Shown: positions 1 to 11,039 of the stretch, in pieces
Layout of the letters: every line of letters begins with the position of its first letter
How positions within the stretch are numbered: position 1 is the first letter of the stretch
UHGV virus genome: UHGV-0171440
Source of the DNA: a virus
Reading direction: 5' to 3' (one strand)
Length of the DNA: 20,676 nucleotides
Notes under the pieces: model-generated
Told to the model about the DNA's origin: nothing
Databases searched by the model: none
Seen by the model: only the letters and a program-made list of their open reading frames with translations
Made by a program: the position numbers and the translations under genes

Positions 1-202
1 TAAGGCTTTATGCTAGATGCATTCCGCTTTGCGACTCAACCTTTTTCACCTAAAGGATGACAAAATCACATAAATAATTTAAATATCATAGCATTAGATT
101 ACTTAATGATTAAATAATAGACTGCAAAACGCGACAAAACACAACATATCCAGTCACTATGAATCAACTACTTAGATAGTATTAGTGACCTGTAACAGAG
201 CA

Positions 203-243
203 TTAGCGCAAGGTGATTTTTTGTCTTCTTGCGCTAATTTTTT
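203..243 (+). terminator. Candidate intrinsic terminator on the plus strand, downstream of the tailspike region
   Basis: 10-bp inverted repeat TTAGCGCAAG (203-212) / CTTGCGCTAA (228-237) followed by TTTTTT (238-243). The 15-nt loop is longer than typical. Confidence 0.35.
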
Positions 244-346
244 GACATAAAAACATGCCGCACTCCTGAGAAGCACAAAGCCTTGCAATCCAGTACAAAG
301 CTTTGTTTGTCTCAGTTTTGTCTCACATTGCCGGCATAATCCTTAA

Positions 347-361
347 CCCGCACCAGGCGGG
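347..361 (-). terminator. Weak candidate terminator hairpin after the tailspike stop
   Basis: GC-rich 5-bp inverted repeat CCCGC/GCGGG with a 5-nt loop just 3' of the tailspike stop; the following sequence on the minus strand is only partly T-rich. Confidence 0.2.
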
Positions 362-376
362 TCATGGTTGTTGCTG

Positions 377-1597
377 TCATGTAATGGTTACTGGCACCTC
401 GACAGATATTCCGTGAATCGGCTCGTTAATCAGTATCTTGATGTTTCCTGACACGTTCTCATCGAAAACAACGTCAAAGACAAGATTTTGAAATATTTGG
501 TTCCGTCGAGATACTAGTGCCTGATGAAAGTAGTTCACAGGCAGATGAAGTGTTGCATTGACCTTGGGTTCAAATGAAATTTCTGGCTCCACTACCGATA
601 CGTATCGTGTTGAAACATCCTGTGGTAAGGATGTTGGGGATAGTTCGATGGTCACCGTTTTCCCGTTGACCTTTACACTCTTCTTCGCAAGAACATTCAG
701 CGGTGAATAGGCGTGATACACAGAAAGGAGAAGTCTCGCCCTGCTTGCCTTGTCAACAATGCTAATAGTCGAAAGCGCATCCCCGCCAGAAGAGTAAGAG
801 GAAACAATATCTACAATACCAGAGTCCTGGGTTATCTTTCGGACTGACAACGTACTGAACCTGTCCTCAAAATCAGTTTCCACCACCAGTTCCGAGAACT
901 GAGCATTCAGCAGGGAAAATGGAACGCTGTAGTGGTAGTTTTTTGTTGCCCTGAACGAATACACAGGGGAAACAAATCTCGGAACCGTTGGATACGCTGC
1001 GGCGGGTCTGTCCAGTTTTGTCGGGTAAGCCGGAACCTTGTAGCCAGCCAGCAGAATATATCTCAACTCGTCGTCTTCGTTCGGTGGATCTATCTCAGCC
1101 ACCTCAACGAGGTTGTAATCATGGTCCTGATTGATAATGGCAACAGGATCACCATAGGCATCAAACCCCAGCAGCTTGTGTTTCCGCTGGTCTACATTTG
1201 GTAGTGGTTCGACTGAAGGCTCAGGAACACGCAGGAAGTGCTTTGTCGCTAAAGCCTTCCCCGCCCCGCTGGCAGGCATAATGTTCGGATAATAGTAAAC
1301 CTGCACATTATTCACGTCATAAACAACCATGCTGTAGGCATCGTCAGTGTAGAACTCAACGACAGCACCGTTATACACACAGTAGCCACCAGAATTAATA
1401 GAAAGAGGCTGTGACACAGGAATGAATTCCCCGCTCTCGTTTTCAATGTAAACGTTAATCTGGTTTTTCTTGATGACAGGGTCTTTGTCAGGCTTACCAA
1501 TATAGATTTGACCATTTGCTATTGGTCTCAGACTGTTTGGATAAGTGAATAACTGCGCAGGGATTCTGACGGCAACGTTTGGGTTAATTGTTGTCAT
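377..1597 (-). CDS. Tailspike / receptor-binding protein (406 aa) with a P22 gp9-like N-terminal head-binding domain and a short divergent C-terminal domain
   Basis: N-terminal ~110 aa (ANGQIYIGKPDKDPV...NQINVYIENESGEF...) resembles the P22 gp9 head-binding domain; the rest does not resemble the P22 beta-helix as I recall it. AGAGG Shine-Dalgarno 5 nt before the ATG. Last gene of the late operon. Confidence 0.8.
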   Translation of the reverse strand: MTTINPNVAVRIPAQLFTYPNSLRPIANGQIYIGKPDKDPVIKKNQINVYIENESGEFIPVSQPLSINSGGYCVYNGAVVEFYTDDAYSMVVYDVNNVQVYYYPNIMPASGAGKALATKHFLRVPEPSVEPLPNVDQRKHKLLGFDAYGDPVAIINQDHDYNLVEVAEIDPPNEDDELRYILLAGYKVPAYPTKLDRPAAAYPTVPRFVSPVYSFRATKNYHYSVPFSLLNAQFSELVVETDFEDRFSTLSVRKITQDSGIVDIVSSYSSGGDALSTISIVDKASRARLLLSVYHAYSPLNVLAKKSVKVNGKTVTIELSPTSLPQDVSTRYVSVVEPEISFEPKVNATLHLPVNYFHQALVSRRNQIFQNLVFDVVFDENVSGNIKILINEPIHGISVEVPVTIT

Positions 1598-1626
1598 AAG
1601 GACCTCTTTAAAACTTTTTTGGGATG

Positions 1627-1650
1627 TAAAAAACCCAGCCGAAGCTGGGT
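1627..1650 (-). terminator. Intrinsic terminator (minus strand) between the antirepressor region and the tailspike gene
   Basis: Read on the minus strand: CCCAGC-TTCG-GCTGGG (6-bp stem, UUCG tetraloop) followed directly by TTTTTT; lies right after the stop of the 73-aa ORF. Confidence 0.6.
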
Positions 1651-1657
1651 CGTTGCG

Positions 1658-1879
1658 TTAGTTATCAAAATGTCCGTACGTTTCTTCTTCTTCAGGTGTA
1701 AGGGGGAGAATCTCGACTCTATCTATAGATACCTTTTCAATGTACCCATGAGGTCTACTTAAAATTAAAGCTCTCTCATGCCACAGAACTCCAAGAATGT
1801 GATACCTTCCAGCATCGCCTTTTACCCTGGCTCTTCCTTTGATTCTTGGCGGCATAATGCCATATTTTTTCTTTGCCAT
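1658..1879 (-). CDS. Hypothetical 73-aa protein, translationally coupled to the upstream antirepressor-like gene
   Basis: ORF whose ATG overlaps the upstream stop (TAATG); no recognisable motif; sits between the antirepressor-like gene and the tailspike. Confidence 0.55.
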   Translation of the reverse strand: MAKKKYGIMPPRIKGRARVKGDAGRYHILGVLWHERALILSRPHGYIEKVSIDRVEILPLTPEEEETYGHFDN

Positions 1880-2607
1880 TATGCAACATTACTCCCATGA
1901 ATCAGGTGTTGTAGTGCTTTAACACCTTCCGCATTGTAGCGGAATGCTTCCACCTGTTTGCTGGAATGCGCAGATTTATCCAGGAAGAACTTCCCGTACT
2001 GCTCAGTTTTGAGGTTGTTTGCGTTAGCAATGCGACCAATCTTGTTGGCCGTTACTCCAAGCTGCTCTGCAACCTCCCCTGCTGAGTAGTAGTGTTCTTC
2101 GATTGCTGGTAGAGGAATTGCATTAAAACCGACTATTGGGTTGATTATGCTTGCTGCCGCAGTCTGCTTTGCCTCAGGTGCAAGGTTAGGCATCAAGTCG
2201 AACAGGTTGGTAACTGCTTCAACTGTCATTTTCAGGGTGCGGGCCTGACGGTACTCAACAAGACCAGTTGCTGACTTCCCGTTCTTGATGTGCGCTTCCT
2301 GCATATTTTCAAGTTTATCTACCAGAGAGCGACGTACCGCCTTAGACTCACGAGCGGCCACGCGGAGCGCCTGCTTGATGGACATATCAATGATGACCAT
2401 CGAAGTTTTGTTCGCTTTTTGCACTACACTTTTTGTGTAGTGCTCCCCATCCAGTTCATCTTCAACTTTCTCGATGAATTTGTTATTGCGAACTTCCGGC
2501 TCACCGCACTGTTTGCGTGCTTCATTGACCATCGCCAGCAGAGACTGGCTATCAATAGTTTTATCCGTGACAACGGATCCGATGTTTGCTACATTCTTCA
2601 AAGTCAT
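1879..2607 (-). CDS. Phage antirepressor-family protein (about 242 aa) with a KilAC/ANT-like C-terminal domain
   Basis: Start set at the internal ATG (MTLKNVANIG...) preceded by AAGGAA-n6; C-terminal region (HYYSAGEVAEQLGVTANKIGRIANANNL...) resembles antirepressor C-terminal domains from memory. The domain assignment is not verified. Confidence 0.55.
   Translation of the reverse strand: MTLKNVANIGSVVTDKTIDSQSLLAMVNEARKQCGEPEVRNNKFIEKVEDELDGEHYTKSVVQKANKTSMVIIDMSIKQALRVAARESKAVRRSLVDKLENMQEAHIKNGKSATGLVEYRQARTLKMTVEAVTNLFDLMPNLAPEAKQTAAASIINPIVGFNAIPLPAIEEHYYSAGEVAEQLGVTANKIGRIANANNLKTEQYGKFFLDKSAHSSKQVEAFRYNAEGVKALQHLIHGSNVA
2567..2595 (+). promoter_or_regulatory. Candidate sigma70 promoter on the plus strand, antisense to the 5' end of the 242-aa antirepressor-like gene
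   Basis: -35 GTGACA (2567-2572), 17-bp spacer, extended -10 TGcTACATT (2587-2595). Confidence 0.35.
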
Positions 2608-2676
2608 TAGGCATTCCTTATGTGGTAGTAAGGGTGTGACATAGGCCGCCAGCAGCACACTGGCGGTTTTCTTTTT
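2602..2676 (+). ncRNA. Candidate cis-antisense RNA (about 75 nt) complementary to the start codon and RBS of the 242-aa antirepressor-like gene
   Basis: Bounded by the candidate promoter above and a canonical plus-strand terminator at 2646-2676; it would cover the complement of the ATG (2605-2607) and the AAGGAA Shine-Dalgarno (2613-2618). Confidence 0.3.
2646..2676 (+). terminator. Canonical intrinsic terminator on the plus strand inside a minus-strand operon
   Basis: 7-bp stem CCGCCAG/CTGGCGG with a 7-nt loop, followed by TTTTCTTTTT. No plus-strand protein gene lies upstream of it. Confidence 0.55.
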
Positions 2677-4061: not shown

Positions 4062-4079
4062 CGGTGGGTTTCATTTCTT
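4045..4079. terminator. Bidirectional intrinsic terminator between the convergent mnt-like and lipoprotein genes
   Basis: Hairpin AACCCACC-TGAC-GGTGGGTT flanked by an A-run (4047-4052) on one side and TTTCATTTCTT on the other; the mnt stop codon TGA sits in the loop. Confidence 0.6.
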
Positions 4080-4497
4080 AATCTTGCTTCGTGGAAGGTG
4101 TAAGAGATGCGTTTGCCTCTTTTGGCTTCAAGGTATACATCCCACCATTAAATGGATCAACAGCAAGCCAACCAATTAACCCACCAAACACAAGGTTTCC
4201 ACCAATATACCAACCATTAGCATTGGCTTTGATTGGCAGGGTAACTGGTTCGTACCCATCCTTTTCCATAGTGATCTGGTAGCTCTTTTTGCCAAAATAA
4301 CTACCATCTGACTTGGAAAGAGTTACTCCTTGTGGAGTTTTACCTTGCGCAACAATCACACCTGATTCATCTTTTACCTTAAAGCTCGCACCAGAAGGAT
4401 TGCTGTTCACTTGCACAAGTTGCGTTTCATCACCAACAATAGTTGCGCACCCAGATAACATGATAGCGCCAGCAACGACGCTAATAATCCTCTTCAT
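4078..4497 (-). CDS. Lipoprotein with a PEGA-like domain, about 139 aa
   Basis: Start set at MKRIISVVAGAIMLSGC (signal peptide with lipobox LSGC); mature region has PEGA-like motifs (SNPSGASFKV, GKTP, KDGYEPV) and a Gly/Trp-rich hydrophobic stretch (GWYIGGNLVFGGLIGWLAV). Domain call is from memory of the family pattern. Confidence 0.7.
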   Translation of the reverse strand: MKRIISVVAGAIMLSGCATIVGDETQLVQVNSNPSGASFKVKDESGVIVAQGKTPQGVTLSKSDGSYFGKKSYQITMEKDGYEPVTLPIKANANGWYIGGNLVFGGLIGWLAVDPFNGGMYTLKPKEANASLTPSTKQD

Positions 4498-4963
4498 ATC
4501 AATTTCCATTTCGTGAAAACCACAAACATGCTAATAGCAAAACAAAATAATGTGAAGTGCGTACATAAAAAATGTGCGTTTAATAACCACGAGCACGCAG
4601 AGAACTCGAAGAATAATCACACCAACTACACGAAAAGCTAAATACAGACATTAAATATTGTGCAATAGTTATAAATACAACATTTAGTACACACTAAAAT
4701 TATTATACATAAATATATCATTAAAATGATAATCAAGCCGGTTCACACCTCGGCTTTTTAATGTGCGGTTCGCAGAACTCCACAAGGCCACTTTCAAATA
4801 GTGGCGCACTCATTTTTGGCAGTTTTCCCAGATTGAGATTTTTCATCATATCTTGAGATACTAATGGTTTAACCGATAACACTGCACAAAAAGCACAAAC
4901 TTCCCTTTTCTTTTGCCCATAGGATCAGCCCAGTTATGGCTAATTGCTGCAATAGGAGGGCAT

Positions 4964-5860
4964 GTGATTATTGGTAATAGGGTAATGGTTGAGGATAAAG
5001 GTGGACTTACCGCCAAGGACAAAGTGAACGAAAGTTCAAATCATCCTGAATATGAATACAGGATGGTATCTTTATCCATGTCATCAAACAATGCCGCAGC
5101 AATCACCCGTCGCGATATCTCAATCCATATATTTGACGGCGAACCTTTAACCAGAGGGGGGCGCACGCATTATAAGAGCATGTTTGAAAAGGATCTTTCA
5201 GAAAACAGATATATAAAAGCCAATATTAATATGGATTCAGTATCTGATAATATCTTTTGCTTATCCGCAACTGATAGTGGAATGCTTCCAGTCCGACCAT
5301 CTCAGATTATGATATCTATACGTGAAATAAGAGGAGGTAAGTCACCAGAAACATACTGCGGCAAATTTTATTTCAATGATGAAAATGAAGAAAGAGAGTA
5401 CTCTTTTAAGAAGGGAGATAACTCACTTTTCATTTATCTAAATCTTGATTCTTCTATCTTTTCCGACATATTTAACAGCTTAAAAAATGGAGACACGACA
5501 ATTGAATTTGAGATCAACTTTCCTGCTTACGCAGACTGGCTAGATTGGATGGCGGGGGGAGGTTGGCCTACGACATATATCATCAATCCAGCACGTGATG
5601 ATGAAAACTTCATCTCCATAACGAGCATATCGACCTCCCAATCAGCTAATTGGAGAGTTGAAGATGAAGAAACTGAAGTCATTAAAAATGATGACACTTG
5701 CAATTATGAAAATGATATTGAACATAAAGATGTAAATGCATCAATCATTGCCACCAATGAACTTATATCTAACCATTCTATCCACACAAAACGGTTAACA
5801 TCTTACTTAGCAATAATCACATTTTGCTTAATAATATTAACTATTAAGGTTTGTTTCTAA
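4964..5860 (+). CDS. Hypothetical acidic, Ser/Asn-rich protein with a single C-terminal transmembrane anchor; start uncertain (TTG 4913, GTG 4964 after AGGAGG, or ATG 4985)
   Basis: Long ORF opposite to the late operon and convergent with the gp16-like gene; visibly AT-rich relative to the late genes; C-terminus LTSYLAIITFCLIILTIKVCF is a hydrophobic tail anchor; no catalytic motif recognised. Confidence 0.7.
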   Translation: MIIGNRVMVEDKGGLTAKDKVNESSNHPEYEYRMVSLSMSSNNAAAITRRDISIHIFDGEPLTRGGRTHYKSMFEKDLSENRYIKANINMDSVSDNIFCLSATDSGMLPVRPSQIMISIREIRGGKSPETYCGKFYFNDENEEREYSFKKGDNSLFIYLNLDSSIFSDIFNSLKNGDTTIEFEINFPAYADWLDWMAGGGWPTTYIINPARDDENFISITSISTSQSANWRVEDEETEVIKNDDTCNYENDIEHKDVNASIIATNELISNHSIHTKRLTSYLAIITFCLIILTIKVCF

Positions 5861-10071: not shown

Positions 10072-10527
10072 CTATCTCCCGTGATTCAGGTAGTCGATTA
10101 GTTCTTCGCGTGTTGCGCTGTAAAACGTCACATCATCCACGCCTTTGAAGTATTTCCTGATGGTTCCGACACGTTTAAGGCCAACCATTGCGCAGTACAT
10201 CTGGCCGTGACGAAATTTGCGTGCAGCAAATGATGTGACACACTGGACGGAAGTGTGAGTGAGAATGAACCGCCAGAACGCCAGCCCGATTTCCTTGCTG
10301 AACCCGCGAATCTCCGGCAGGTACATGGCGTGACATTCAAAAGTCAGCGGCTGAACCTCCTGATAGTAAACAATGCCGCCAAACCGCCCGTGTACATTCA
10401 CTTCAAAATACCGACACTCCGGTTTGTAGTCGTACCCGTCACCATTGTTACTTCCGGCAATAATGTCCTTGTGGTTTCCGACGGCTTCTATCAGGTCGAT
10501 GTTTCGCGTTGGTTTGAATGTGATCAT
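10072..10527 (-). CDS. gp14-like virion assembly protein, 151 aa
   Basis: Position between the tail needle and gp7 as in P22; size similar to P22 gp14. Assignment by synteny only. Confidence 0.65.
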   Translation of the reverse strand: MITFKPTRNIDLIEAVGNHKDIIAGSNNGDGYDYKPECRYFEVNVHGRFGGIVYYQEVQPLTFECHAMYLPEIRGFSKEIGLAFWRFILTHTSVQCVTSFAARKFRHGQMYCAMVGLKRVGTIRKYFKGVDDVTFYSATREELIDYLNHGR

Positions 10528-11039
10528 CAGTCAATCAGTCCATGTAATCTGAGTACCGTTTCCAGCGCCAGAATACGCTGGCGCGCCTGCTGCAAACCTG
10601 TAGCGAGAGCCGCGACTTCGGATTGTGTGTGCGTAGTGCCGATCGTGTATGACTGATTGGCGTTGAATGAGCCAAGAAGAGGTGTACCTGTGGCTGCAGT
10701 CCATCCGGTCTGGCGGGGACCGATAACCTGAGTACCTCCGACCATATACACTCCGTCAGTATCAAGTGACGAGGCTATATGCTGCGTCCCTGCTTTGGTT
10801 TTTGAGACGCTATCCTTCTTCAGTTCTGCAATCTCATTGTCCTGTCGGTCATTATCAGCCTGCGCATCGTAGGTGGCGCTGGCAACAAACCGCAGAAAAT
10901 CAGAAGAGGTCTGAAAATTATCAGCCTGTGTCAGAACATGCAGACGGTAACTGGCAGTGAAGTTTTCCGGCAACATAGATGGTGTTAACTGATTGACCGA
11001 AAAAGGAGCATCCGTCAGTAATTTCTCATTAGCCATCAT
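10527..11039 (-). CDS. Tail needle (gp26-like), short form of 170 aa
   Basis: C-terminus ...GPRQTGWTAATGT...LRLHGLID matches the P22 gp26 C-terminus from memory; position after gp10. Confidence 0.7.
   Translation of the reverse strand: MMANEKLLTDAPFSVNQLTPSMLPENFTASYRLHVLTQADNFQTSSDFLRFVASATYDAQADNDRQDNEIAELKKDSVSKTKAGTQHIASSLDTDGVYMVGGTQVIGPRQTGWTAATGTPLLGSFNANQSYTIGTTHTQSEVAALATGLQQARQRILALETVLRLHGLID

Follow-up and report, generated by a model that had tools for sequence, protein, structure and literature searches.

The closest described relatives of the spike reported here are P22 gp9, Sf6 gp14 and HK620 gp9. For adsorption by enzymatic tailspikes, P22-like phages serve as the textbook example, and the O-serogroup of a host is predicted from the type of spike. 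The genes of these three spikes come last in the late operon. Their products combine a head-binding domain, which anchors them to the virion, with an exchangeable distal part, a right-handed parallel beta-helix with endoglycosidase activity, and are 623–710 amino acids (aa) long. Here we describe a tailspike gene in the virus genome UHGV-0171440, a stretch of 20,676 nucleotides (nt) to whose full length we refer as the window. The gene is complete, occupies positions 377..1597 on the minus strand (ATG start, 406 codons, TGA stop at 377..379) and lies in the gp9 position of a P22-type prophage. Its product is like the three described spikes in its head-binding domain (residues 1–107), in its location and in its division into anchor and exchangeable distal part, but it is only 406 aa long and carries, behind the anchor, a linker, a neck and two predicted immunoglobulin (Ig)-like domains, with no enzyme signature. 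On balance, we think that it is a receptor-binding spike that works without enzymatic activity.

A P22-type anchor joined to an unrelated distal part

Residues 1–107 (1277..1597, minus strand) form a P22/Sf6-type head-binding domain. The Pfam family Head_binding (PF09008) matches them over profile positions 1–107 of 113, with an E-value (E) of 7.7e-37 and 126 bits against a cut-off of 24. Matches to PDB sequences are limited to residues 1–108 and comprise Sf6 gp14 (7sg7, E 5e-30), P22 gp9 (8tvr_A, E 2e-24), 2vnl and 1lkt, with HK620-type spikes also represented, and 22 PHROG tailspike families match the protein solely in its residues 1–107 part. The isolated P22 domain has been crystallised as GCN4 fusions (PDB 2vnl, 2vky).

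Past the anchor, the databases fell silent. Pfam gave no significant match to residues ~110–406: the list at E ≤1 consisted of Head_binding and a sub-threshold DUF1866, with no Ig family (Big_2, I-set, fn3) in it, and no Beta_helix or pectate-lyase match was obtained anywhere in the tailspike. PHROGs returned nothing for this region beyond a 33-aa motif in the linker, and nothing at all when residues 156–406 were queried alone. The distal ~300 residues had no match in NCBIfam or PADLOC, nor among PDB sequences, whether searched as a single sequence or as a 15-sequence profile. A preliminary description of the locus, made from the DNA letters, had stated that only the first ~110 residues resemble P22 gp9, that the remaining ~300 are unrelated to the P22 endorhamnosidase, making the protein a mosaic, and that it is far shorter than gp9 (406 versus 667 aa). 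These statements were borne out: Pfam and PDB alignments stop at residue ~108, and the P22 chain 8tvr_A has 667 aa. Nor does the distal part correspond to a well-characterised tailspike domain.

Compared with the gp9 family, then, the protein has the head-binding domain and the position after the ejection genes and the immI region, but by sequence and AlphaFold2 (AF2) model it has neither the parallel beta-helix nor the conserved acidic active-site residues. We therefore regard it as a P22-type spike whose distal module is non-canonical.

Anchor and module are connected by a linker (residues 108–155; 1133..1276, minus strand) with the motif LRVPE..LP..RK.K.LGFD..G.P at residues 122–154 (window 1229..1134, minus strand). 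The same residues are matched by phrog_1640 (tail protein), and a fibre-related protein of Erwinia phage Zoomie is 59% identical to the motif over 32 aa. Two further proteins, P0019 (BNR/pectate-lyase) and P0020 (Beta_helix), are homologous to the tailspike within the motif alone. In these otherwise unrelated spikes it sits just ahead of beta-helix, BNR or pectate-lyase domains. The motif was not found in solved structures, a PDB search with the linker plus neck peptide giving chance matches only. Because it is common to unrelated beta-helix tailspikes and fibres, the motif is a candidate recombination joint and may be a conserved site of distal-module exchange. The architecture is at least tripartite, consisting of the anchor, the shared linker motif, and the neck with the Ig-like module.

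Two predicted Ig-like domains behind a conserved neck

Structure prediction of the distal region had been suggested in the preliminary description. The AF2 model of the module has a predicted local distance difference test score (pLDDT) of 87.4 and a predicted template modelling score of 0.74, with the five models at 84–87; a full-length model built from a three-sequence alignment reached a pLDDT of 34.5 and was set aside. The module model shows two all-beta sandwiches, and fold searches with it returned Ig-like domains only. The first sandwich (Ig1) covers residues ~205–297 (707..985, minus strand) and the second, distal one (Ig2) residues ~298–406 (380..706, minus strand). Both are modelled as the two-sheet Greek-key beta-sandwich of about 90–100 residues that characterises the Ig fold, and the strands of Ig2, at module positions 149–250, have pLDDT above 90. 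Ig2 carries a conserved (N/D)YFNQ motif and is the most variable segment of the protein (72% identity in Escherichia albertii). The distal part is thus predicted to be two tandem Ig-like domains behind a conserved neck. Since the fold is an ordinary one, the earlier suggestion of a possible new binding fold was not upheld.

The neck (residues 156–204; 986..1132, minus strand) is the most conserved segment, being 100% identical in P0002 and 92% identical in P0003, and has a beta-hairpin around residues 179–190. It is found in every anchored family member and is missing from the anchorless members of 215–242 aa. As a putative stem it probably trimerises the tailspike; we infer this role rather than read it from the model, because the pLDDT of the monomer is low there.

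Ig-like domains are known from other phage proteins, such as the C-terminal domain of lambda gpV (2l04), the SU10 tail surface protein (7z47_G) and the GP4 adaptor (8jou_D), which have 4–12% sequence identity to the window domains. There the Ig-like domain is attached to a tube, capsid or fibre protein as an appendage, whereas here the predicted domains make up the entire distal part of the only spike.

Could the C-terminal region nevertheless be a depolymerase or esterase that has escaped recognition? Of the P22-like spikes that have been characterised, nearly all are enzymatic, and the family to which the module belongs is unstudied. However, no beta-helix, SGNH, sialidase or lyase fold was found, the best fold matches being non-catalytic Ig domains, and neither Pfam nor PADLOC gives an enzymatic domain. 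Residues invariant throughout the family (Y223, F227, G260, P338, F357, G384) are all of structural types, with no invariant Asp, Glu, His or Ser among them; S235 and D392 are near-invariant, the window protein having Glu at position 392. We consider an enzyme very unlikely, and the model does not point to the new depolymerase that the preliminary description had considered possible.

An old layout under purifying selection

Compared with a 90%-identical variant (L015), the gene has a whole-gene dN/dS ratio (omega) of 0.07, with values of 0.06 for the anchor, 0.04 for the linker, 0 for the neck (no nonsynonymous and 18 synonymous changes), 0.08 for Ig1 and 0.14 for Ig2. The distal climb of omega from the neck through Ig1 to Ig2 fits a fixed stem bearing exposed domains that evolve more freely. 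Against the 77%-identical E. albertii ortholog, dN was 0.14 and synonymous sites were saturated. Protein length is constant at 406–407 aa in variants at 100, 90, 77 and about 40–50% identity, the last of these being P0004. The open reading frame (ORF) is a real gene under purifying selection and not a chance ORF.

These data bear on the idea that the gene is a truncated or decayed tailspike of a cryptic prophage. Its product does fall about 260 aa short of P22 gp9, and the gene borders the prophage end, but the low omega, the synonymous saturation relative to E. albertii and the length fixed down to P0004 speak against decay. Moreover, the distal part is predicted as complete domains, homologous to full-length proteins elsewhere, and the other virion genes are intact. 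Because selection and length argue in the same direction, we exclude a decaying remnant as extremely improbable.

Conservation also qualifies the earlier view of the protein as a classic host-range swap. The mosaic part of that view stands, but the protein is at least tripartite, and its layout is old, the same 406–407-aa arrangement having been kept to about 40–50% identity in P0004.

A module shared with myovirus baseplate cassettes

When 1.84 billion representative proteins were searched exhaustively with HMMER, the yield was 18 matches in all, only one of which, P0004 (407 aa), has the same architecture as the window tailspike. Seven of the 18 (P0005, P0006, P0008, P0009, P0012, P0013 and P0014) are proteins of ~296–320 aa whose N-terminus is a different one ('KKFSEL...') and which have residues ~157–402 in common with it, and six (P0010, P0015, P0016, P0017, P0018 and P0021) are proteins of ~215–242 aa without anchor and neck. 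The linker-motif proteins P0019 and P0020 and two giant repeat adhesins complete the list. Over residues ~157–402 the ~296–320-aa and ~215–242-aa proteins match with E from 1e-42 to 1e-4 at 21–35% identity and have conserved YxIPF and (N/D)YFNQ motifs. A profile search of an indexed set of 5.8 billion proteins added one further subfamily of ~241 aa and nothing else. The two giant adhesins of the HMMER list, P0007 (6073 aa) and P0011 (1868 aa, with SpaA repeats and LPXTG), gave 11–18 weak stretches, which we rejected as generic similarity of beta-sandwiches or repeats rather than homology.

The module is a member of no family in PHROGs, and a close-alignment search of GTDB species representatives and IMG/VR found no relatives. 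Megablast of the C-terminal DNA against 5,426 complete E. coli genomes gave no match, and tblastn against 50,697 phage records recovered the 33-aa linker motif only. In public data an identical protein exists (P0001), and dozens of draft E. coli assemblies and a single one of Salmonella Poona contain the tailspike (WP_255398249.1 is an E. coli example, and GCA_024846805.1 a carrier assembly of E. albertii), under automatic names such as 'phage tailspike protein', 'head-binding domain-containing protein' and 'hypothetical protein'.

The ~296–320-aa proteins belong to myovirus cassettes, and none of the homologs in such cassettes has been characterised. They are homologous to window residues ~157–402, with the neck present in anchored forms, but their 'KKFSEL...' anchor replaces both the head-binding domain and the LRVPE linker. 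The ~296-aa homologs accordingly have no linker motif, and homology begins at about residue 157. Their genes stand between a wedge gene and a Collar fibre gene, or in arrays of two or three. In two loci (L012 and L013) the gene of a ~300-aa homolog is flanked by Baseplate_J/Wedge1 genes on one side and by a Collar-type tail fibre (phrog_26622) on the other, and in L012 a gp38-like gene comes after the fibre. Phage ZF40 has the same fibre type and no homolog of the module; by sequence reading, the corresponding slot is occupied by a fibre-like protein of 829 aa together with a chaperone-like one.

We take the module to be a portable distal cassette of receptor-binding-protein (RBP) slots, because it is fused to different anchors and appears both in a podovirus tailspike and in myovirus baseplate RBP slots. 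Small, uncharacterised and moving between podovirus and myovirus anchors, the neck with its two Ig-like domains could serve as a compact binding scaffold, with a practical reach limited by the rarity of the family.

The myovirus slots also bear on the proposal that the Ig-like module is an adaptor or scaffold onto which a second RBP encoded elsewhere docks, as in SP6/K1-5-type and dual-tailspike phages. No second RBP, fibre or spike gene was found in the window or in the four related prophage loci L001–L004, where the module profile finds a single copy, and the ZF40 comparison weakens the proposal further. An adaptor role seems to us quite improbable.

Two loci contain arrays of module genes, which mix anchored and anchorless forms. 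L011 (1161..3759) has three tandem copies in a P2-like Ogr/Delta context with adjoining RHS toxin genes. L010 (999..2698) has one clear copy, preceded by a 323-aa ORF that, by eye, is a possible divergent second copy; the two overlap by start and stop codons and adjoin host gmhA-like and yafJ-like genes.

Probable receptor binding without an enzyme

In the reading we favour, residues 1–107 would dock the spike on the tail hub in P22/Sf6 fashion, and the linker and the ~50-residue neck, presumed to be a trimerising stem, would project the two tandem Ig-like domains outward. These domains would bind a host surface structure reversibly, with no polysaccharide hydrolysed, and the irreversible steps and DNA release would fall to the needle and the ejection proteins. 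Because the spike would bind without hydrolysing polysaccharide, adsorption would be closer to that of fibre-bearing podoviruses such as T7 than to that of P22. The T7 gp17-type fibre embodies the same concept, being a side fibre of a podovirus that is anchored to the tail by its N-terminus, continues into a trimeric stem and ends in a small beta-sandwich tip, which is non-enzymatic and binds the cell surface reversibly. It has no sequence relationship to the window spike, its anchor and stem are different, and it has one tip domain as opposed to two Ig-like ones.

As to the receptor, variants of at least 90% identity are found in E. coli and in the Salmonella Poona assembly, and the 77% variant is from E. 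albertii. The preliminary suggestion of a different O-antigen specificity found no support here, and the spread of hosts hints at a possible receptor outside the serogroup-specific O-antigen. A broader scenario, which we put forward tentatively and consider possible rather than likely, is that a P22-like lineage of E. coli, E. albertii and Salmonella dropped its O-antigen-degrading tailspikes. Its virions would instead bear six Ig-tipped, non-enzymatic spikes and a short needle, with a receptor independent of serogroup, such as an outer-membrane protein or the lipopolysaccharide core, and the Ig-like module would be a horizontally exchanged receptor-binding cassette, hitherto unrecognised, that myovirus baseplates have in common with these podoviruses.

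Several observations weigh against a receptor-binding, non-enzymatic spike. In phages, Ig-like domains frequently serve as accessory decoration instead of as the main receptor binder. The omega values of the Ig-like domains are well below 1 and give no arms-race signal at the tip. The AF2 model is a monomer, in which the neck has a pLDDT of only 36–73. Wherever the module protein occurs in a myovirus locus, another fibre stands beside it, an arrangement compatible with an accessory role. Finally, P22-like phages in the literature covered all have enzymatic spikes, so that a non-enzymatic one would be an exception.

Some of these points would equally suit a spike that is structural filler, occupying the six tail-hub sites for completion or stability while the needle or ejection proteins recognise the host; the Ig-like domains would then be a weak glycan 'velcro' at most. 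The usually accessory role of Ig-like domains in phage structural proteins and an omega that is low throughout, with no diversifying signal, fit this idea, as does the short needle (170 versus 233 aa), which makes the whole tail tip atypical. However, about 250 residues have been kept from P22-like podoviruses to myovirus baseplate cassettes, more than filler needs, and the module is in RBP slots in all contexts seen. We think a filler role unlikely.

If the spike does bind its receptor without an enzyme, it would depart from the enzymatic-tailspike rule, implying another route to the outer membrane and another trigger of DNA release, and serogroup prediction would fail for prophages that bear an Ig-tipped spike. 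A 2026 report on dual-spike 'Hueyvirus' phages again describes P22-like spikes that are enzymatic. In the literature on P22-like spikes we found no Ig-tipped form; the survey of Casjens and Grose (2016), which lay outside this coverage, could list one. Neither the module family nor its use as the only spike of such a phage appears to have been described before.

Prophage context and expression signals

The window represents the right end of a P22-type prophage with an intact virion operon (gp3, large terminase, portal, scaffold, coat, gp4, gp10, needle, gp14, gp7, gp20 and gp16). Past gp16, a low-GC island and then an immI-like Arc/antirepressor region lead to the tailspike gene, which is the last gene and occupies the gp9 position. 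The order is the same in L001–L004, where host DNA follows the tailspike gene, and the tailspike gene is terminal in at least four prophage lineages at at least two integration sites, namely ybhB-bioA (the lambda attB region) and, in E. albertii, yfaS-rcsC.

Directly downstream of the gene, window 72..309 is 86% identical to lambda 27473–27708, which contains the sib/tI terminator and the att arm by int. Window 1–257 has 88% identity to the ends of Stx1a-converting phages, and window 1–330 has up to 97% identity to E. coli chromosomes. A lambda-like att arm right after the tailspike indicates that a P22-type virion module has been joined to a lambda-type integration module. A GC-rich stem-loop detected by scanning (346..362) lies 15 nt past the tailspike stop codon and, together with the sib/tI and att-arm region, marks the prophage end.

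On its 5' side the gene has a strong Shine-Dalgarno sequence, AAGAGG (1608..1603, minus strand), 6 nt from the ATG. Sequence inspection and a consensus scan predict a terminator-like hairpin with a T-run (1651..1632, minus strand) between the tailspike gene and a 73-aa ORF. P22 gene 9 offers a parallel to this upstream hairpin, since its transcription arrives by antiterminated late transcription.

The 73-aa ORF (phrog_4977, unknown function) and an antirepressor-like ORF of ~242–259 aa (phrog_1726) are the next genes upstream of the tailspike (1658..2658, minus strand). The DNA there is 89% identical to Escherichia phage JEP4, in which the genes are annotated KilA and Rha. Both ORFs are kept in the E. 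coli lineages and missing from the E. albertii loci.

The tail needle and other neighbouring genes

The needle gene, a gp26 homolog (10527..11039, minus strand), encodes 170 aa compared with 233 aa in HK620 and P22. The protein aligns in two blocks, about 63 shaft residues being missing. Among isolated phages, colinear alignments were obtained with APSE needles only, and no complete E. coli genome contained the whole short-needle gene. Every locus with the 406-aa spike has a needle of 169–170 aa. The pairing could mean that the short needle is co-adapted to the short spike, or could reflect shared ancestry alone; it is inseparable from linkage because the carrier loci share ancestry.

The low-GC island (GC 0.36–0.39) that separates gp16 from the immI-like region contains a 315-aa ORF read in the opposite direction (4913..5860, plus strand). 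It has no match in Pfam, PHROGs, PADLOC or NCBIfam, and the gene calls in L004 and L005 give it 298 aa. We regard it as a probable moron of unassigned role. A 143-aa ORF (4078..4509, minus strand) belongs to phrog_6823 (unknown function) and may encode an exclusion lipoprotein, because it bears a weak resemblance, over its first ~20 residues, to the Cor superinfection-exclusion lipoprotein family.
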